From IMG/VR virus record IMGVR_UViG_3300005253_000363, positions 1-50,385 of that record: a stretch of DNA of 50,385 bases. The stretch is one strand, 5' to 3'. Source of the DNA: a virus. Lineage: Duplodnaviria; Caudoviricetes. Numbering within the stretch: the stretch's first letter is position 1; each line of letters starts with the position of its first letter. A model generated the notes under the pieces. The model had not been told where the DNA came from. It searched no databases and saw nothing but the letters and a program-made list of their open reading frames with translations. The position numbers and the translations under genes are program-made. Shown piece after piece: positions 2,323-43,479 of this stretch.

Positions 2323-2367
2323 ATGCCAGTCCTAATCGACAATTCCACTATGCAACACAAATGTTAA
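2323..2367 (+). pseudogene. Orphan N-terminal stub of the 2548 nuclease gene
   Basis: MPVLIDNSTMQHKC* versus MPILIDNSTMEKT at 2548; has its own G-rich RBS. Confidence 0.8.
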
Positions 2368-2567
2368 ATCAAACCTACGAACTTAGGATGATAGAACATA
2401 CGAATTATGTTAGGGGGGAGGTCGTACGCAACAAGCCTCAAGTGCGTGAACACGAATACAGGAAGTTTCTTGCCAAATGTGCTGACCACGCTTTTGTGGT
2501 TGGTGATTATGAGATTCAACACAAACTAATAAAGGAGCTTGAGTTAATTGCCAATTCTTATAGATAA
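2361..2567 (+). CDS. Inserted hypothetical protein
   Basis: MLNQTYELRM...; overlaps the stub stop and the nuclease start. Confidence 0.6.
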   Translation: MLNQTYELRMIEHTNYVRGEVVRNKPQVREHEYRKFLAKCADHAFVVGDYEIQHKLIKELELIANSYR

Positions 2568-3549
2568 TTCCACAATGGAAAAAACCGCTTCCTGCCACAC
2601 AGCAGTTGCAATGGAGCGTGTCCTCCATCTCAAACCCAAAGCTGGCTCCCCCCAACTCGAAGCCGGAACCGCCATGCACAAAGCATGGGAGAAATTCTTT
2701 AATGGAGAGGATGTGGAAGTCTGTATCCTGGCCCTTCGTGAACACTACTCCTCTAAGCTCCCCTATTTTGAAGACATTAAGCCTACCTATGATCTAGCTA
2801 ATCTTGAAAACCTCTTCAGGATATGGGCTTCCAAACATCCCAACAGAGAATTTCCCTGGGTTTCTCAATATGTTGAAAAAGGATTCCAAGTCAGGTTGTT
2901 TCCTGATCTGGGAGTTGACCTGATTGGAAAGATGGACACTTTCGGGGCTGATGGAACCGGGTCTTACTGTGTGGTGGACTGGAAGACTACTGGATATAAT
3001 CTGGATACCAGATGGTTTCGTAAAATTCAGAATGGTTCGCAGGTAAGTGCATACCTCTACGCAACACAGAGACTCTTTGGATCAGCTGTATGGGTGTTAT
3101 ATATTATGGCCCTCAAGATGAAAGTGGTTCCGATGTCTAATCGGACCTGTAAGGAACATGGAATGAAATACTGGAATCCTGAGAAGAAAGAGGGATGCTA
3201 CCATGAGCATGCTGACTATAAGGTGGAATCTGCATATCGGAACAAAACGCAACTCTTGGGCTGGTATCAGGATGCCCGGTTGATTACTCAGGACTATCTT
3301 CACATCCTCGAAAATGTAAAGTCTATAGAGGACATTGGCAGGGTTCCCATGCAGGGAGTATTTAATAATTCCTGCCAGGATTGCAGCTACCGGGAATTCT
3401 GTCACTCATTCAATCGAAAGCCTGAATCAGCAGAGCAGTTATTTGATTACAAACCGTGGAGCCCATTGCTTGATATGGATAAAGAGGATATCTTTTATGA
3501 AAAAGAAATTGACTATGACGGAGCTGACGGTTCTTTGCTGGTTGTATAA
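2548..3549 (+). CDS. PD-(D/E)XK exonuclease, Cas4/AddB-like with Fe-S Cys staple
   Basis: GTAMH, GKMD, VVDWKT and QVSAY motifs; N-terminal Cys plus C-terminal CxxCx5C. Confidence 0.85.
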   Translation: MPILIDNSTMEKTASCHTAVAMERVLHLKPKAGSPQLEAGTAMHKAWEKFFNGEDVEVCILALREHYSSKLPYFEDIKPTYDLANLENLFRIWASKHPNREFPWVSQYVEKGFQVRLFPDLGVDLIGKMDTFGADGTGSYCVVDWKTTGYNLDTRWFRKIQNGSQVSAYLYATQRLFGSAVWVLYIMALKMKVVPMSNRTCKEHGMKYWNPEKKEGCYHEHADYKVESAYRNKTQLLGWYQDARLITQDYLHILENVKSIEDIGRVPMQGVFNNSCQDCSYREFCHSFNRKPESAEQLFDYKPWSPLLDMDKEDIFYEKEIDYDGADGSLLVV

Positions 3550-3796
3550 GAAACCAAGAAGGCCAGATAAGATAAAACTTCCTATGATGATAACCTTGGT
3601 TTCTGTAGCCTCTCTGATTCAACGGCTGCGAAGAAAAGATTTTGTTGCTGGCAGGGTAATGGAAAAGCGCGAGATTTTCTCTTTACGGAGACCGGGAAAG
3701 ATATACAAGATTACTGCCGCTGGTAGAACGGCTGTTGAAAGCCAGATGAAATTAATGGGCCAACAATTAAGTTATTTGAGGAGTTTGGTGAGATGA
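3497..3796 (+). CDS. PadR-like winged-helix regulator
   Basis: SLIQRLRRKDFV...KIYKITAAGR; RBS GAGGA before ATG 3497. Confidence 0.65.
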   Translation: MKKKLTMTELTVLCWLYKKPRRPDKIKLPMMITLVSVASLIQRLRRKDFVAGRVMEKREIFSLRRPGKIYKITAAGRTAVESQMKLMGQQLSYLRSLVR

Positions 3797-4170
3797 ATAA
3801 AGAATCGAAAGAATCCATTGATAAGGTTGTAGAACTGGTTGATAAAAATATTGACAGGTTGGTTGAAAAGATTGCAGAGCTAGGACCGGAAGCTGCGTAT
3901 GGTTTTAATGAGATAATAGCAAAAATCTCTGTTGAGGCTTGGACAATTGTTTTTATGGTTCCTTTAGTTTGTTTTGCGTCTTGGACAGCATTTTACAAAG
4001 CAGTAAAATACGGAATAAAAAAGGACTGGGATGGAGCAAGTTTTGCTTTTGGGGTGTCTTCTGGAATTCTTTGTTTATTTTCTACAGTAGGTCTGGTTGT
4101 TGATGTTCCAAGATTTTTGGCACAAGCATTGCATCCTGTAGGCTATTTCCTGTTGGAGGTTCTTAAATGA
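3793..4170 (+). CDS. Membrane protein (2 TM)
   Basis: Two hydrophobic segments. Confidence 0.65.
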   Translation: MNKESKESIDKVVELVDKNIDRLVEKIAELGPEAAYGFNEIIAKISVEAWTIVFMVPLVCFASWTAFYKAVKYGIKKDWDGASFAFGVSSGILCLFSTVGLVVDVPRFLAQALHPVGYFLLEVLK

Positions 4171-4211
4171 AAATCCCCCTACTTCACATCCTTATAGTAG
4201 GAGCTCAGTAG
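4167..4211 (+). pseudogene. Orphan N-terminal stub of the 4377 ATPase gene
   Basis: MKIPLLHILIVGAQ* versus MKIPPLHILIVGEP at 4377; RBS GGAGG. Confidence 0.85.
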
Positions 4212-4212
4212 A

Positions 4213-4380
4213 ATGAATGACCATGATTGGTTTGGTATTATTTGTGCCTTGCTAACGTTATTTGTTGGATTTCATTTAACAGTTAACACAAATGATATCC
4301 TTTGTAATTATCTAATTGGTCCGGTCTTTTTAGGGCTGGGGTCAACTGGACTTTATATTGAATGGGAGCAAATTAGATGA
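4213..4380 (+). CDS. Inserted 55-aa membrane protein
   Basis: MNDHDWFGIICALLTLFVG...; ATGA overlap with 4377. Confidence 0.6.
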   Translation: MNDHDWFGIICALLTLFVGFHLTVNTNDILCNYLIGPVFLGLGSTGLYIEWEQIR

Positions 4381-5177
4381 AGATACCACCTTTACATATT
4401 CTTATTGTTGGAGAACCCTTCGCCGGAAAAAGTACCTTCTGCCGTACCATGCCCACCCCGAATCTTGTATTCTTCTTTGATCCTGTTGGTAAAGATGAAG
4501 CCTATCTCGAATGCGGGGATGTACAGGATTTAGACAACGGCCAACCATTAAAGACCCTTCAAGGGGCTCCAATGAAAAGAGTCTGGAGCCGTGAGAAGGA
4601 GCCTAAACTGCTCTTTCAGGTGGAATACTATCATGATGGGGAATGGGTTGAAGATCCAATAAAGGGAGGGTTCAAGCCTACTCCCGTAGCCTACGAGCAA
4701 TTTTGCAAGAGACTTATCAACATAGACCAAGAGTTTGATTACTGGAATACAATCAGTCTTGACTCTTACTCCGGAGCTGAACTTTCTGCCATGCTCCGTG
4801 AAAAATTTAAGCTTAATCCAGGAACAAAATTCGATCTCCGGCATTGGGGTGGCGGGGCTAGATCGGAACTTGAGATGGCGATATTCGCAAGGTTCGGGAT
4901 GTTTCCAATGAATGTTGTAGTGATCTGCCACGAGAAAGTATACCAGAACGATAAGACCGGAGAAATTATCCGGCAGGCAGATACCTACGGAAATCTTGGT
5001 AACACATTTGGCAGAGGCTTCTCCGAAATGTATCGTATGGTTAATATCCCGAATGTAGGTCGCCAGTTACAAACCCAGAAAGACGCAATGTGGAACGCAA
5101 ATTCCAAATATGCTCCAAATCCCTGTGAGCCTAGTTATCAAGCGGTAATCGCTTCAATCACCAATCAAGGAGAATAA
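4377..5177 (+). CDS. P-loop ATPase, Sak4/AAA_24-like recombinase
   Basis: Walker A GEPFAGKS, ISLDS Walker B, NVVVICHE; lies between exonuclease and SSB. Confidence 0.8.
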   Translation: MKIPPLHILIVGEPFAGKSTFCRTMPTPNLVFFFDPVGKDEAYLECGDVQDLDNGQPLKTLQGAPMKRVWSREKEPKLLFQVEYYHDGEWVEDPIKGGFKPTPVAYEQFCKRLINIDQEFDYWNTISLDSYSGAELSAMLREKFKLNPGTKFDLRHWGGGARSELEMAIFARFGMFPMNVVVICHEKVYQNDKTGEIIRQADTYGNLGNTFGRGFSEMYRMVNIPNVGRQLQTQKDAMWNANSKYAPNPCEPSYQAVIASITNQGE

Positions 5178-6282: not shown

Positions 6283-6736
6283 GACTGTGAGCGGCGTGGA
6301 AGGACACGCGGAAAGGACACATCATTGGATAACTCACTGGCTAGAGTTTGCAGGTTAGTACGCTTGGATCGATACCATAGCTGGGTGTGTCTGGAAACCT
6401 GAAGCAGACATCAATCTCTGCCTCACAGTCTGATTTAAATTTGAGTTGTGAGGGGCCTTTCTCAGGGTGCCGCTGGGGAAATCCCAACCGTACGGGCCAG
6501 CGAGAGCGAAAGCAAATCGGGAAGCCTAGGTTGACTGACGAACTGGTCACATCAGGTCGTGAGTACACAGGAGGGAAAGGATAAAACGTAGGCGTCGGAC
6601 CACGCCAACCCTCACAACTCATTCAAATATATTGCCGGGTAAAGCATCTGTTCAAGGCCGCGCAACATCCTAGGGTGCGGTTGCAGATGGGCGGTCCACT
6701 CTCATGGAGAAGGGAAGTTGCAACCCGCCACCCGGT
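6282..6736 (+). ncRNA. Three tandem structured RNA candidates (6282-6431, 6442-6621, 6634-6736), partly tRNA-like
   Basis: gactgtgag/ctcacagtc, gagttgtgaggg/ccctcacaactc and gccgggt/acccggt closing stems with internal hairpins and GAAA loops. Confidence 0.6.
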
Positions 6737-6755: not shown

Positions 6756-6941
6756 ATGAAGCCGAAGCATGTATGGATTATTGAGTATGGGACTGGCAGT
6801 GAGTGGAATCCTGATAGTGACCACGACGGAGATTTTACTATTTTCTTTGTCAAGAGGGATGCCGTTGAACACATGAAAAAGAACCATACAGGACACCCAA
6901 CCAATCTCCGGGTCCGCAAATATATGAGGGAAGAAAAATGA
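6756..6941 (+). CDS. Hypothetical protein
   Basis: GGAGG RBS; MKPKHVWIIEY...LRVRKY. Confidence 0.65.
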   Translation: MKPKHVWIIEYGTGSEWNPDSDHDGDFTIFFVKRDAVEHMKKNHTGHPTNLRVRKYMREEK

Positions 6942-7267
6942 CCCCCACCGATGAAGTCCTAGCAGAGTTTGTCTTTAAGTTACTGAAAGCCGAAAAAGCT
7001 GATGAAGCTTATTGGGTATCCTATTATTCAAGACAATTTCTGGAAACCAGCAAAGCAATGTTTGAAGGCTATAATGCCCCCTTTATCCGCCACCTGATTG
7101 AGGAGGCGATGGTTGAGCGGAGGTTCAACTGTTTTAGTGAATTTCGAGATAATCAATGGAGTTATACTTTTGCTTTTGCTCTTGGGGATGAGAACAGAGA
7201 ACCAGAAATGAACGAAAACAAAACCCGCGCCGTAGCACTGGCCGCATTTAGAACGGGGGAAAGATGA
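6938..7267 (+). CDS. Phage ABA-sandwich-like protein (paralog 1)
   Basis: N-terminal LAE helix; C-terminal RAVALAA. Confidence 0.5.
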   Translation: MTPTDEVLAEFVFKLLKAEKADEAYWVSYYSRQFLETSKAMFEGYNAPFIRHLIEEAMVERRFNCFSEFRDNQWSYTFAFALGDENREPEMNENKTRAVALAAFRTGER

Positions 7268-7479
7268 ACACTTGTAAGGATTGTAAGTGGTGGGATGCCT
7301 ACCACAAAGATGACCCGGCTAATTCGTTTGGGATGTGTAGGGCCGAGAGGTTCGCTGAAGATGTCCAGGCTGTTGTTAAAAGTCCAATTGAAGGTGAGTG
7401 GCCTGCTGATGGGAAATATGACGGATTCGACACAGCCCCTGACTTCGGCTGTATCCACTGGGAGAAGAAAAATGAGTGA
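7264..7479 (+). CDS. Small Cys-rich protein
   Basis: CKDCKWW...GMC...FGCIHWE. Confidence 0.65.
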   Translation: MNTCKDCKWWDAYHKDDPANSFGMCRAERFAEDVQAVVKSPIEGEWPADGKYDGFDTAPDFGCIHWEKKNE

Positions 7480-9683: not shown

Positions 9684-10042
9684 CCCTAGAGCAAATAACA
9701 GCCGTGGCAGAGGAAGTTTGGGGATGGGATAAGCATAGCTCTCCGGGATTGTGGTTTGATCTTAATAGGGTTGAAAGCAAATTAAGAACCTTAGATGATT
9801 TGAAGCTGGAGTTAGAATCCTGGTCCGGCTTCGGCAGGACGGTGGAGGCTATGGCTGATAGGGAGTTTGTATTGTTGATTGACAACACCCCAGGCTTCGT
9901 TAAATTAAAGCCAAATTTAATCAGCTACAGCTACGAAGGTGGTCCTGTCCCAAAGCTTACAGCTAAAGAAATAATCGAAGCAACCCACCTCGCCGCCCTC
10001 GAAGCGAAGCGGAAGGAGAAGGAAGATGCGGAAGGTTCATAA
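9680..10042 (+). CDS. Phage ABA-sandwich-like protein (paralog 4)
   Basis: AVAEEVWGW...EATHLAALEA. Confidence 0.55.
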   Translation: MTLEQITAVAEEVWGWDKHSSPGLWFDLNRVESKLRTLDDLKLELESWSGFGRTVEAMADREFVLLIDNTPGFVKLKPNLISYSYEGGPVPKLTAKEIIEATHLAALEAKRKEKEDAEGS

Positions 10043-29826: not shown

Positions 29827-30541
29827 GAGTAGCTGTACCTCCCATAAAATGCCATGCTGCATTGGTGAAGAGAAGACTTGCTGAATCTCCTACATCATCA
29901 AAGGTTATAGTTGAGCCGTTTCCGAGATTATCTGGAGTAAGTGTTCCAACTCCACCATCAGTTTTCATGACAATAAACTTTTGCTGATCTGCTACACCAT
30001 CTACCAGAGTAAGAGCATCTGCTCCTGTTGTTACAATATGGGTGATTCTTGAAACGATGTCAACCGCTCCCGGACCTGTGAGAACTTGAATGATACTTGC
30101 TATTACCACTGGATAAGTGATTCGAGCATCCTCAACTGCTGTGATCGAACCACTGGCTGTAGTGACTTTCATTAGGAGAGCTGAATCTGTTGGAACAGTA
30201 GGAGTAGTTGCTGATCCGGTATTCCTGAAGAGGTAATGGGTTCCAGACTCGCGGGTCCAATTGGTGACGACTGAAGTTGTGTCCTTGTGGCAAATGACCC
30301 ATACATGAGTTGCGTCGTCTGGGTAGGTTATGGAGCCTGTTTCTGTAATGAAGTGACCTCCGGGGTAGGCTGTCAAAGAGGTCGGAGTGTGGGTGAGACT
30401 TCCAGCAGTTGCTCCAAGGCCACCAGAGACTATGAAGCCCGTGAACATATCTTTGAAACGATCTGCGTCCTCTTCGGAGAGGAAAGTGGAGAGATCGTTC
30501 TCGAATGCTGGACCTGCTGTTGGGAGTGGGTTAATTGTCAT
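29819..30541 (-). CDS. Short tail fibre / virion protein (paralog of 30546 gene N-terminus)
   Basis: Shares EEDADRF, ETG.I.Y and SGTHYLF blocks with the neighbouring gene. Confidence 0.6.
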   Translation of the reverse strand: MTINPLPTAGPAFENDLSTFLSEEDADRFKDMFTGFIVSGGLGATAGSLTHTPTSLTAYPGGHFITETGSITYPDDATHVWVICHKDTTSVVTNWTRESGTHYLFRNTGSATTPTVPTDSALLMKVTTASGSITAVEDARITYPVVIASIIQVLTGPGAVDIVSRITHIVTTGADALTLVDGVADQQKFIVMKTDGGVGTLTPDNLGNGSTITFDDVGDSASLLFTNAAWHFMGGTATLA

Positions 30542-30545
30542 AATT

Positions 30546-32168
30546 TTACTCGATTGGGGTTATTATCATATAACCGTCTGCTCCATCACCACCAACAGTA
30601 GGGGCGCTACTGCTACCGCCACCACCACCGCTTCCTAATAGAGTAGCATCATTACCGTTTCCACTAGCTGCACCGAGGCCACCATTAAATTCAACCCATT
30701 CTTCAGGAGCAGAACCACCATTACCCCCAGTTCCACTACCACCGGCAGTACCTGCATGAGCAACAGGGATAGTTATATCAGTGCCTGTAGTTGAACTACC
30801 CGTACCCGCTGCCCCACCAGCTCCTGCGGGATTTGCGGTAGCACCACCGGAGCCTCCCTTTGCCGTAACTAAAGAACCAAATGTGGTGTCGCCACCAGCA
30901 TTCCCAGGAGATCCTGTGCCCCCACCACTCGTCCCTCCAGCACCAATCGTAACAGTCTCAGAACCACCCGGAGTTACAGTAACAACCGCTTTAATAATCT
31001 GCGCTCCGCCTCCCCCACCCCCTGTATTAGCACCGGAAGTACCTCCACCACCTTGCCCTCCTGCGGCTACAGCTATAACAAACACTGACGCAATTCTATC
31101 GGGTACAGTATAAGTACCACTGGCTGTAAATACTTCGGTTCTGCCGCCAATGGCTTGAGTCGTTCTAAGCGGAGTCATACGCTTTGTGTTATTTGTACCA
31201 GTCTCTGCCTCTGATTGTGAGGCAATTGGAATTAAATCTTGAGTGATAACTTTTCGTGTTTTAACCCCGGTTGCGGAATCGTCATGAACAATTACTGTAT
31301 CGGCAGTTTCATCCACAACTCCTGTAATTGTCGCTGTCCCGTTAATATCAAGGACAGTCCCATTAGAATCTATTGCGACTACGCCATTAGCAACTGTGTT
31401 GACTCGAAGTTTCCCCCCAGTGAATTCCATCCCAGAAGTGGTTGCCAAGTCTATATCGAGCAGTAAGTCTTCATCCCCAAAAGCATTCTGGACAGTTTCT
31501 TTAAGGCCAGCTCCTGCTGTGATCTTGTCTTCAATGAATCCCGGAGTCGTGTCATTTGTGCTGACTACGCTTAAAGCATCTGCATCAATTGTAATTTCTT
31601 CATTGGCTCCTGGATTGGTTTCGGTCAGAGTGATTCCACCACCAGCCGTTAATTTAGCTAGAAGAGTATTCGCTGTAGTGTCATCTGAAGAAACCTTTAC
31701 CTTGAATACATCCTCCTGAACTGCAAATGCTGAAAGGTTTCTGAGGTCGGTGACTGTGGTGATTGATCCACCGGAAGTGACTACATCCATTAGAATGAGT
31801 CCTCCGGCAGGGACTGAAGGCTGAACTGCTGCAACTGGATCGAAGAGATAATGAGTACCAGATACCCGAACCCAATCTCCCCCAACAACTGTAGTAGTGT
31901 CCTTGAAGATGATTACCCAATGATGGGCTGTATTATCGTTGTAGACAATTGTTCCAGTTTCGTTGACGAAGAAGCCTTGAGGGAAGGCTATGGTGTCTCC
32001 GGGATCTCCTGTGAGAGAGCCGCCTGTACCGTGGAGACCATTCTGGACTACAAAGGGATTTAGAATCAGATCGAATCTATCTGCGTCTTCTTCACGCAGA
32101 AAGTTTTGGAGAACAGCAAGAAATGAAGCCCCTGCTACTGGAATTGTGTTAATTGTAGAAGTGACCAT
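30546..32168 (-). CDS. Tail fibre with C-terminal glycine-rich domain
   Basis: ASQSEAETGT...MTPLR repeat, FTASGTYTVP and GGGGG tracts. Confidence 0.75.
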   Translation of the reverse strand: MVTSTINTIPVAGASFLAVLQNFLREEDADRFDLILNPFVVQNGLHGTGGSLTGDPGDTIAFPQGFFVNETGTIVYNDNTAHHWVIIFKDTTTVVGGDWVRVSGTHYLFDPVAAVQPSVPAGGLILMDVVTSGGSITTVTDLRNLSAFAVQEDVFKVKVSSDDTTANTLLAKLTAGGGITLTETNPGANEEITIDADALSVVSTNDTTPGFIEDKITAGAGLKETVQNAFGDEDLLLDIDLATTSGMEFTGGKLRVNTVANGVVAIDSNGTVLDINGTATITGVVDETADTVIVHDDSATGVKTRKVITQDLIPIASQSEAETGTNNTKRMTPLRTTQAIGGRTEVFTASGTYTVPDRIASVFVIAVAAGGQGGGGTSGANTGGGGGGAQIIKAVVTVTPGGSETVTIGAGGTSGGGTGSPGNAGGDTTFGSLVTAKGGSGGATANPAGAGGAAGTGSSTTGTDITIPVAHAGTAGGSGTGGNGGSAPEEWVEFNGGLGAASGNGNDATLLGSGGGGGSSSAPTVGGDGADGYMIITPIE

Positions 32169-42062: not shown

Positions 42063-42624
42063 TCTCTCCTTCCAACAAATCTATCACTTCTTCATCGGAT
42101 TTTCCAGTGAGTTGTTCCGGTTTGATGCTCAGATTATCCGCCAGAGCTGCTGCCAGGTTTTGAACGGAATCTCCGAATTCGATTATCTTGGTTTCCTCGT
42201 GTTGGGTCTTGGACACCTTCGGCATCTGTCGGTCAAAGAGTTCCTTGGCTGCGGAGACACGGACATTTTCAGAATCAGCATCGTCCATGAGATGCTCCAG
42301 TGTTCGCATGGTCTTTTCCGTGATTCGGTCCAAATACTTCGTGGCATCGAAGACCGAGGCTTCCTCCACCTGTTTTCTGAGATCACCGATATAGATTTTA
42401 TAGACTGGAGAACTCCTGACTCGGTGGATGGTCATCTGGTGGCAATTAAGTTCTCTTGCAATCTGTTTGTTCTTGTAACCCATGATTTCCATTTGGGCGA
42501 TTGCGCGGTGGCGATCATTGAGTTCTTCGATGGGAGCGTAGGATAAAGGGGGAGCGGATTCAAGCTCTGGAAAAGCTTGGAGGGCGGGGAGTTCGTGATT
42601 TGGAATACCAGTGCCTTCACTCAT
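41977..42624 (-). CDS. terS: Terminase small subunit candidate (HTH)
   Basis: GYKNKQIARELN HTH and VRVSAAKELFDR; upstream of TerL. Confidence 0.6.
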   Translation of the reverse strand: MSEGTGIPNHELPALQAFPELESAPPLSYAPIEELNDRHRAIAQMEIMGYKNKQIARELNCHQMTIHRVRSSPVYKIYIGDLRKQVEEASVFDATKYLDRITEKTMRTLEHLMDDADSENVRVSAAKELFDRQMPKVSKTQHEETKIIEFGDSVQNLAAALADNLSIKPEQLTGKSDEEVIDLLEGEIDAAPEIHQTQEQETQEAPQQNQGPEDS

Positions 42625-42977
42625 TCATAAATCTCCTTGTGAAGGTCGTAGAAAGCCCTTTCAAGCAATACTACACATTTTTCTTCGTCAGATACAATTC
42701 CTTTTGCTTTCCTTGGCCTCAATGCCGCAGTATGGCAATGCAATAGCTCATGGATTACTGCCCTTTCAAATTCCTCTTCTTTTTCATGTTCTGGTATTTC
42801 GTAAAATCGAGGGTCTTTTATTTTCATGTGTGAATTAAGATAATCCGTCTGAACCGAAGAGAACCCCCAGCCCTCGATAGCCTTATCCCCGACCAACGCG
42901 CAGGAAATATCCCAATGATCGAGCTTCAACTTCTTCTGCCAGTACCGGACTTTGCGTTCAAGTTGTTTTTGGTTCAT
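42621..42977 (-). CDS. HExxH zincin-like protein
   Basis: VIHELLHCH and WQKKLKLDHW. Confidence 0.65.
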   Translation of the reverse strand: MNQKQLERKVRYWQKKLKLDHWDISCALVGDKAIEGWGFSSVQTDYLNSHMKIKDPRFYEIPEHEKEEEFERAVIHELLHCHTAALRPRKAKGIVSDEEKCVVLLERAFYDLHKEIYE

Positions 42978-43204
42978 AGAGAAATCCCCCAGTCATCATA
43001 AAGATCTTTAACAGGTTTACAATCTACAGGCATCACCAGATAAACGTATCCCTCTCTAATGCCATCAGAGTGAACCCAATAATTCTGATTGCATCTGACA
43101 ACATCACCCCTATTTTCGTTAACCGCCTTTAAAATAGTCCAAGACATTTTCAGGCCGCCCCTAAGTTTTTTTAACCTTTGTCGAATACTTTTGAATACTT
43201 GCAT
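42974..43204 (-). CDS. Hypothetical protein
   Basis: Coupled ORF. Confidence 0.5.
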   Translation of the reverse strand: MQVFKSIRQRLKKLRGGLKMSWTILKAVNENRGDVVRCNQNYWVHSDGIREGYVYLVMPVDCKPVKDLYDDWGISL

Positions 43205-43233
43205 TTAAGACTCCAAAGTAAAGTTTGTTTAAT

Positions 43234-43479
43234 TTAAGCTGCTTTTGGTTCATCGGGAGGTTCTCCTGGCCCAAGCCGCCCCATTCCTTGAATTAAATCA
43301 AGATTTGGATTGGTCGGATCATGAAAGGGTTTCTCAGTAAGATCTTGGGGTACATAGGGAACTTCACGTTGATACAGTTCACTACGGCACCACGGGCAGT
43401 ATTTAATGTGGATCATCCCAATCGCTTCGTGGAAGAGGTTTCCAATTGCTTCCCAGTCTTTACAGCTACAAGAATTCAT
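43234..43479 (-). CDS. Small Zn-binding protein
   Basis: CSC...YCPWC. Confidence 0.55.
   Translation of the reverse strand: MNSCSCKDWEAIGNLFHEAIGMIHIKYCPWCRSELYQREVPYVPQDLTEKPFHDPTNPNLDLIQGMGRLGPGEPPDEPKAA

Follow-up and report, generated by a model that had tools for sequence, protein, structure and literature searches.

In the Hendrix-Hatfull model, tailed phages acquire their mosaic joints close to gene boundaries, through recombination that is illegitimate or needs only short homology. Some integrative elements target the end of a gene, as e14 and phage 21 do in icd and other elements do in tRNA genes, and supply a replacement for that end; short upstream open reading frames (ORFs) can couple translation to a following gene by termination and reinitiation where stop and start codons overlap or adjoin. 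In passages of one mycobacteriophage study (PMC3029335), mosaic joints are traced to illegitimate exchange near gene boundaries, and the inserted ORFan gene 68 of Island3 is described as repeating, in its C-terminal 18 residues, those of the upstream gene 67. Excerpts of two further papers (PMC3240628, PMC5361080) describe homology-facilitated illegitimate recombination and its displacement scars, orphan gene ends in the effector-immunity arrays of type VI secretion systems (T6SS). Here I describe a locus in IMG/VR record IMGVR_UViG_3300005253_000363, a metagenome-derived marine-sediment phage whose 50,385 bases together form the window analysed. Within it a short ORF, hereafter the stub, repeats the start of a Sak4-like ATPase gene and is separated from the complete gene by a gene of 55 residues; such a layout occurs three times in the genome (2323, 4167 and 43253). 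I consider the stub at 4167, with a probability of about 0.7, to be the scar of one illegitimate crossover at the sequence AGGAG between two diverged relatives, an event that stacked two small genes in one slot.

The locus resembles Island3 and other mosaic joints in that a small ORFan sits between conserved genes, a gene end is duplicated over a short length, the breaks fall at gene boundaries and alternative alleles exist. Unlike in Island3, the duplicated piece is a 5' end (the start and 6-12 codons) rather than a 3' end, there are three occurrences per genome, the leftover is a translatable mini-ORF, and the copies have accumulated many synonymous differences, which argues that they come from two lineages. 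With the displacement scars, as far as the excerpts describe them, it shares a homology anchor on one side (the ATPase body, where identity breaks near codon 175), a putative microhomology on the other (AGGAG), and a displaced resident gene end that remains as a stub adjoining the incoming DNA. Those scars, however, are 3' ends on bacterial chromosomes that take up linear DNA, whereas here a 5' end is affected, the exchange was likely between phages, with co-infecting or co-resident phage genomes as the likely partners, and the donor arrangement is one that I infer, in contrast to the T6SS cases. As with e14 and phage 21, the target gene stays intact through an incoming copy of its end and the old end is left as an orphan; unlike with those elements there is no integrase, no att-like identical core and only a single 55-residue gene, and it is again the 5' end that is affected. 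Like a coupling leader, the stub is entered through an ATGA overlap, stops 1 nt before the next ATG and contains the Shine-Dalgarno (SD) sequence of the next gene, but its mini-ORF would be a by-product of recombination and not a dedicated leader, and its role in expression is a presumptive one. Searching the literature for descriptions of gene starts duplicated next to phage accessory genes brought up no closer case than Island3 and the displacement scars, which does not prove that none has been described.

Two copies of one gene start

The stub (4167..4211, + strand) encodes MKIPLLHILIVGAQ in the codons ATG AAA ATC CCC CTA CTT CAC ATC CTT ATA GTA GGA GCT CAG TAG. Its positions 4167-4203 copy codons 1-12 and the first G of codon 13 of the ATPase gene, which opens at 4377 with MKIPPLHILIVGEPF (ATG AAG ATA CCA CCT TTA CAT ATT CTT ATT GTT GGA). 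The two starts agree in 11/12 residues and 25/36 bases: eight codons differ synonymously, one differs non-synonymously (CTA Leu against CCT Pro) and the remaining three (ATG, CTT and GGA) are the same, and the longest identical run common to both copies is 5 bases. The duplicated gene end thus brackets the 55-residue gene (4167-4203 against 4377-4413), and the stub copy stops within the Walker A motif, at G12 of GEPFAGKS. A first-pass annotation of this DNA had described the stub as a second copy of the ATPase N-terminus bracketing a small membrane gene; the sequence bears this out, and on recheck all of its coordinates and its residue and codon counts at 4167, 4213 and 4377 are correct.

The resemblance and its synonymous bias are not products of chance. 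A start-anchored scan of both strands (at least 7/9 residues identical, copies no more than 2 kb apart) found just two pairs, 4167/4377 and 2323/2548, and none in each of 10 shuffles; a frame-free scan of 10-mers, with 0, 1, 0, 0 and 0 matches across five shuffles, agrees with it. The copies of the ATPase start differ at 11/33 non-start bases but at only 1/11 residues. When 11 random base changes were laid on the working ATPase copy, an outcome as conservative as this (at most one residue change) appeared in 0/200,000 simulations, which argues that both copies diverged under selection at the protein level. In the same simulation the fraction for the exonuclease pair was 0.0023.

Two relatives place these differences in context: G001, a 52,257-base IMG/VR record with an ATPase 75% identical to that of the window, and L007, whose ATPase is 68% identical. 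The ATPase start of G001 matches the stub at 30/36 bases and the working copy at 27/36, and that of L007 matches the working copy at 29/36 (the first 23 identical) and the stub at 22/36, a pair of lineage preferences that rests on 36 bases and is not significant by itself. Between G001 and the working copy, 8/11 codons differ with 0 residue changes. Because that comparison is equally synonymous, the differences between stub and working copy look like ordinary divergence of orthologues that predates the join. The term "recoded", used in the first-pass annotation, therefore does not hold in the sense of codons changed in place: judged from the sequences, relatives use both codon versions to begin real ATPase genes, each version being nearest a different relative, and nothing is recoded in place. 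The codon-usage comparison that had been suggested, of which copy fits the gene body, was run and proved uninformative, since codon bias is weak; the ln relative codon frequencies add up to -14.3 over the stub and to -12.4 over the working copy, a gap due mostly to the one non-synonymous codon.

A metagenome-derived record from runs that hold several strain variants, one of them G001-like, could in principle be a contig that merges two co-occurring strains, one carrying 125aa-ATPase and the other 55aa-ATPase, and an assembly merge of two strains, shown by read mapping, is what the first-pass annotation had named as refuting its reading. This has been largely refuted and is now extremely improbable. 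Independently assembled contigs of three public short-read runs (X1-X3; two samples of one study, and one run may be the window's own source) span the joints with 4 mismatches at most: X1 rec 6 covers 3767-4226 with 0 mismatches at a depth of 124, X2 rec 14 covers 3936-4819 with 4 mismatches, and X3 rec 21 covers 3478-4408 with 0. Furthermore, a graph assembler can pass from one strain to another only at a long word common to both, and with no identical run above 5 bases between the copies it has nowhere to do so.

The variable slot and the proposed joint at AGGAG

The stub lies between a winged-helix (wHTH) gene and the ATPase gene, in an interval with alternative alleles. Close relatives are few. 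In G001 and in L006, a metagenome contig with the genes of G001 across the region, the order is wHTH, 64-residue gene, 82-residue gene, ATPase, without a stub; in L007 the slot is empty and wHTH adjoins the ATPase gene through an ATGA overlap. The comparison for empty and filled alleles that had been called for at the outset thus yields empty and differently filled ones. Since the gap from exonuclease to ATPase varies across the compared loci from ~15 nt to ~2.3 kb, the wHTH-ATPase interval appears to be a long-standing variable slot. Blocks of nucleotide homology between the window and G001 begin and end exactly at gene starts (2546, 3498-3797 and 4377).

At least four other arrangements of the slot (window 3798-4376) are present in contigs of runs X1-X3, from the same samples; their joints connect 3804 to 4376 (G001-like, depth 18), 3800 to 4197, 3798 to 4363, and 3973 to 4125 together with 4179 to 4363. 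With a G001-like strain and slot variants together in these runs, the phage had partners with which to exchange DNA. A loose end at 4125 suggests that one 73%-identical homologue of the 125-residue protein encoded upstream of the stub comes from a co-occurring strain. Searches of IMG/VR found nothing for the 125-residue or the 55-residue protein, a smaller alignment of the 125-residue family found nothing in IMG/VR or the GTDB genomes, and among the compared loci a hidden Markov model of that family matched the window only. The ATPase had no match among GenBank phages by tblastn, and degenerate pattern scans of IMG/VR for both N-termini returned G001 only, with one copy each. No further stub came to light in the 69 loci (319 kb in total, some of it redundant) that were scanned for one; the only finds were an unrelated direct repeat of 851 bp in L064 and a low-complexity pair (L039/L066).

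The homology between stub and ATPase gene ends after GTA GGA G. Across this point runs a wHTH-like tail, AGGAGCTCAGTAGAATGA (4199..4216, + strand), whose own frame reads RSSVE and then a stop that overlaps the ATG of the 55-residue gene as ATGA. The tail is identical at 12/18 bases to the end of the window's wHTH gene, AGGAGTTTGGTGAGATGA (RSLVR and stop), and differs from it by 6 transitions and 0 transversions; the wHTH genes of G001 and L007 end in RGLVR and RSLKA before their stops, with the same ATGA overlap with the next gene as the tail. In a comparison with 297 other ATGA sites on the strand, four sites including the tail reach 12/18, and the tail alone does so with 0 transversions. On sequence grounds the tail is suggestive, though only suggestive, of a remnant of the donor lineage's wHTH 3' end. 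AGGAG would then be the crossover microhomology (common to codons 11-13 of the ATPase gene and the 3' end of wHTH) and also the SD sequence of the 55-residue gene, at a spacing of 9 nt.

The ATPase gene is itself a mosaic. In sliding codon windows its nucleotide identity to G001 is 60-66% over codons 46-165 and 79-89% over codons 181-266, and the jump, near codon 175 (~position 4893), places an approximate breakpoint at 4880..4915. The G001-like contigs of X1 and X3 align from 4893. The exonuclease and wHTH flanks are ~80-88% identical to G001 in nucleotides, and the segment from ~4204 to ~4890 (the putative wHTH remnant, the 55-residue gene and two thirds of the ATPase gene) therefore looks to have come from a more distant lineage.

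The course of events that I propose begins with two diverged relatives that carried different small genes in the wHTH-ATPase slot. For the left parent I infer the order wHTH-125aa-ATPase, with an ATPase gene that would have started ATGAAAATCCCCCTACTTCAC..GGAGAA; the right parent would have had the order wHTH-55aa-ATPase, its wHTH gene ending AGGAGCTCAGTAGA and then the ATG of the 55-residue gene. An out-of-register, essentially illegitimate crossover would have joined the first ATPase gene at codons 12/13 (GTA GGA G) to the wHTH end of the second phage, which in the joined state reads ..AGG AGC TCA GTA GAA TGA, the joint falling at the 5-base microhomology AGGAG. From the left parent the product would keep the 125-residue gene and 12 ATPase codons (the stub, closed two codons on by TAG), and from the right parent the 55-residue gene and a complete ATPase gene. 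A homologous exchange near ATPase codon 175 would return it to the common backbone. The synonymous differences would have arisen earlier, when each copy was the real N-terminus of its own lineage.

Several points weigh against this reconstruction. Neither parent has been seen: no compared record has the 125-residue gene directly followed by the ATPase gene, or wHTH directly followed by the 55-residue gene. The 55-residue gene is without a homologue, and the 125-residue family was found in no compared locus or collection scan. AGGAG, 9 nt and ATGA together have the look of any well-spaced SD sequence with an overlapping start, and convergence is possible; the transition-only test of the tail is post hoc; and the preferences of the stub for G001 and of the working copy for L007 span 36 bases and lack significance alone. 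The exonuclease has no internal identity break against G001, so the case at 2323 gains no mosaic support. Finally, all three junctions fall no further than 6-12 codons into a gene, which could indicate a targeted process, although I hold that to be unlikely. Selection among random joints would suffice to explain that position, because in DNA without intergenic space a joint further upstream cuts the preceding gene and one far downstream leaves a long truncated protein.

The threefold recurrence of one architecture, in a genome whose operon encodes both an exonuclease and a Sak4-like annealase, also invites the idea of a portable cassette. It would consist of a copy of the ATPase start, a small gene and a second copy of the ATPase start, and would move between related phages by relaxed homologous recombination in which the phage's own exonuclease and Sak4 use the gene start as both arms. 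Arm divergence would in that case protect the cassette against deletion by single-strand annealing; copies whose longest shared run is 5 bases would indeed block it, and no contig joining the stub straight to the ATPase body is listed among the contigs of the runs. According to excerpts of PMC5928155, Sak4 is an ATP-dependent annealase that works with its cognate single-stranded DNA-binding protein and anneals oligonucleotides up to 20% diverged, a tolerance of substrate divergence (~20%) that speaks both for the cassette and for the proposed crossover, and passages of PMC5499656 link phage single-strand annealing proteins to mosaicism. A 36-base arm that is 25/36 identical is, however, "below the divergence reported for Sak4", and the first stub would still need an illegitimate event. 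The three inserts are moreover unrelated ORFans at three target genes, none of them seen elsewhere, and no second stub-bearing locus appeared in the 69 loci (319 kb) or in the IMG/VR pattern scans, where only G001 answered, with one copy of each N-terminus. I therefore regard the cassette, protective arms included, as unlikely.

A direct repeat that flanks an insert, and an insertion that restores an intact gene, are likewise what target-site duplication would leave if a transposon, an integrase element or a homing-endonuclease cassette repaired the gene that it interrupted. That origin is very unlikely here. No domain of a transposase, integrase or nuclease is seen in the inserts (neither the 55-residue nor the 68-residue protein matches Pfam or PHROG), no terminal inverted repeats bound them, and Rfam at gathering thresholds has no match anywhere in the 50-kb window. 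Repeats that are 69% identical, with a synonymous bias, are also unlike att sites or target-site duplications. The insert is not demonstrable as a mobile element.

Sister joints and probable translation of the stub

The first-pass annotation had pointed to the same layout at 2323 in the same operon, and the sequence and the start-anchored scan both confirm it. This first stub, MPVLIDNSTMQHKC (2323..2367, + strand), copies exonuclease codons 1-10 and is identical at 23/30 bases to the exonuclease start at 2548, (TTG)PILIDNSTMEKT; it overlaps the end of a 54-residue gene by 13 nt, and the exonuclease start lies inside the end of the inserted 68-residue gene. Contig rec 2 of run X1 spans it (2255-2598, 0 mismatches). 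That each stub has 14 codons, as had been remarked, is coincidental, since the homologous parts measure 12 and 10 codons and reach the same total by different additions (12+2 against 10+4). The inserted gene of 68 residues (2361..2567, + strand) is an ORFan whose start at 2361 is uncertain, because it overlaps the stub stop and lacks an SD sequence; the call in a public protein collection is 85 residues from ATG 2310 (2310-2567), which reads through the first stub in another frame. In X4, a run of a different study, a contig has a loose end before 2318, and the first stub seems to adjoin a 111-residue gene, without the 54-residue gene.

Two candidate details of the 2323 joint were dropped. The repeat ATGCAACACAAA / ATTCAACACAAA (2350 and 2514), considered as its microhomology, has eight comparable chance repeats in 2.5 kb. 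A possible 3'-end remnant of the Cys-rich gene upstream of the 68-residue gene, with ~10/13 bases matching and one gap when aligned by eye, is too weak and was left unused.

The third stub, ATGAACCAAAAGCAGCTT (MNQKQL; 43236..43253, - strand), is shorter and also overlaps the 3' end of an upstream gene, here of 81 residues. It matches, at 16/18 bases, the true start at 42977 of a 118-residue gene with an HExxH motif (42621-42977), from which it is separated by an inserted 76-residue gene (42974..43204, - strand); the whole layout spans 42621-43479. In G001 the 81-residue and 118-residue homologues overlap directly by 20 nt and the 76-residue gene is absent, which makes this an empty allele. The end of the 81-residue gene and the start of the 118-residue gene share bases, so both genes survive an insertion only if those bases exist twice, and this explains why the third start is duplicated.

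Taken further, the three cases would make gene starts reusable docking sites, at which crossovers a few codons into the resident gene stack accessory genes into coupled operons. Such crossovers might be made by the operon's exonuclease and Sak4, annealing on very short diverged homology, and the stubs kept as ribosome relays. I hold both parts of this idea to be unlikely; if true, they would describe a cassette-capture system without an integrase, at work three times in one 50-kb genome.

As to the stub at 4167, it is probably translated as a 14-residue peptide and would pass ribosomes to the 55-residue gene, because it has an SD-like sequence of its own (GGAGG, 4155..4159, + strand, 7 nt 5' of its ATG, as read from the sequence) and its ATG overlaps the stop of the 125-residue gene as ATGA, so that the chain of coupled translation would be unbroken. 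Its stop lies 1 nt 5' of the ATG of the 55-residue gene, its codons 11-13 supply that gene's AGGAG, and read-through of its TAG would meet a TGA three codons on. In the minimum-energy fold, UCCU and CUACU of the stub pair with AGGA and AGUAG downstream; the hairpin over the SD sequence of the 55-residue gene is no better than in shuffled sequences (z -1.32; 22/200 shuffles fold at least as well). The start region of the working ATPase gene is unusually unstructured as RNA (z +1.79).

These features would also suit a selected leader mini-gene, which arose by local duplication and was kept to control the 55-residue gene through termination-reinitiation and the opening of a hairpin over its SD sequence. 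The intact GGAGG at 7 nt, the ATG, the upstream ATGA overlap and the stop 1 nt before the next ATG agree with such a role, as does the pairing of stub bases with AGGA and AGUAG; in the case at 2323, the 68-residue gene has no SD sequence and its ATG overlaps the stub stop, and a similar arrangement of stub and 68-residue-like gene may exist in X4, from the different study. I nevertheless find the leader quite unlikely. Its fold does not rise above that of shuffles, and coupling needs any short ORF, so conservation of the peptide is left unexplained. A local duplication, furthermore, starts out identical and its neutral drift would not be synonymous only, and the codon version of the stub matches the real start of a relative.

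The operon, its surroundings and what the joints mean

The virus record is complete or nearly so (97% by CheckV). Its early operon, densely packed on the + strand at the left end of the window, has the order exonuclease, wHTH, 125-residue gene, stub, 55-residue gene, Sak4-like/AAA_24 ATPase and 202-residue gene, and the synteny of exonuclease, ATPase and 202-residue gene recurs in many loci. Promoter and terminator scans gave background levels only. The PD-(D/E)XK exonuclease (2548..3549, + strand) has a TTG start, matches Pfam PDDEXK_1 with an E value of 7e-16 and is 82% identical to G001 in nucleotides from 2546. The wHTH gene (3497..3796, + strand, 99 residues) forms the conserved left border of the variable slot; its match to Pfam HTH_34 is weak (E 0.0028, short of the cutoff), it is 80.7% identical to G001 in nucleotides and 79.8% in amino acids, with the homology block stopping at 3797, and its stop and the next ATG overlap in the sequence ATGA.

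The first gene of the slot (3793..4170, + strand) encodes 125 residues with two hydrophobic segments, to judge from its ORF, hydropathy and composition, at a GC of 0.37 and a third-position GC (GC3) of 0.27. Its protein family is small (13 representatives at E values of at most 1e-3, the best 73% identical), and the gene is absent from G001 and L007. The second (4213..4380, + strand, GC 0.35) encodes the hydrophobic 55-residue protein and its stop overlaps the ATG of the ATPase gene as ATGA; the protein is an ORFan, with no homologue but itself in 5.8 billion clusters and no Pfam or PHROG match. Both genes are AT-rich, with a GC3 of 0.27 against 0.41-0.47 in their neighbours.

The working ATPase gene (4377..5177, + strand, 266 residues), whose first 36 bases are the second copy of the duplicated start, matches PHROG 124 with an E value of 1.8e-8 over residues 163-250 only. 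Its score against Pfam AAA_24 (21.1 bits) is under the 27-bit cutoff, while 12/12 aligned family members match at E values of at most 1e-3; there is no sequence match in the PDB, and the Walker A motif GEPFAGKS occupies residues 12-19. The target gene is a candidate for that of a Sak4-like annealase-ATPase, with putative annealing activity. A further Sak4-like ATPase ORF, in an IMG/VR record at L067:4920-5711 (locus coordinates), is apparently circularly permuted: equivalents of residues 64-261 of the window's ATPase come first (hhalign probability 99.9), and the C-terminus holds the Walker-A N-terminal segment, equivalent to residues 5-40 and 58% identical. This permuted ATPase could be a relic of tandem gene duplication.

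Other junctions of the region deserve mention in their own right. At window 3497-3549 the exonuclease ORF extends 53 nt into the wHTH gene and its C-terminal tail differs; the two G001 homology blocks overlap by 10 bases at window 3498-3507, and G001 has 181 extra bases between exonuclease and wHTH, with an ORF of 64-82 residues (MKMNREM...). The exonuclease/wHTH junction looks like a microhomology-bounded deletion or insertion. In G001 the start of a 76-residue gene (MTTLID) and the exonuclease start 580 nt downstream (MTILID) agree at 17/18 bases (G001 49317 and 49899; L005:7018 and 7600). A homologous 78-residue gene at window 1448 follows the Cys-rich gene at the junction that leads, in G001, into the exonuclease, and the two genes stand in swapped order in the window and G001. 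The swap may reflect unequal crossover between similar gene starts, and part of the likeness between the 76-residue gene start and the exonuclease start may be old, since the L007 homologue begins MTKLHN.

Further afield, patches of 31-77 nt that are 77-100% identical to G001 lie inside dissimilar DNA, and several coincide with the start or end of a gene; examples are 6891-6941, 7259-7308, 7441-7477 and 9974-10034, and an intergenic-looking 31-mer at 6420-6450 is identical. On the minus strand at window 30253-32105, peptide repeats ~1,615 nt apart (WVRVSGTHYLF/WTRESGTHYLF and FLREEDADRF/FLSEEDADRF) suggest a pair of diverged paralogous genes.

For gene annotation, the locus carries a warning: stub mini-ORFs, and overlapping-frame calls such as the 85-residue one across the 2323 stub, can mislead gene callers. 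As biology, it is a clear and unusually well-preserved example of a known process, the phage mosaic joint, rather than of a new one, and a fairly ordinary trace of small-gene swapping. Phage joints are rarely caught before selection trims them, and here three fresh-looking joints stand in one genome, of which one (43253) has a relative with an empty site and another (AGGAG) allows a base-level reconstruction of the crossover. Together they show how an operon of overlapping genes can gain small accessory genes: exchange occurs a few codons past the start of the following gene, for which the new DNA then supplies another start.

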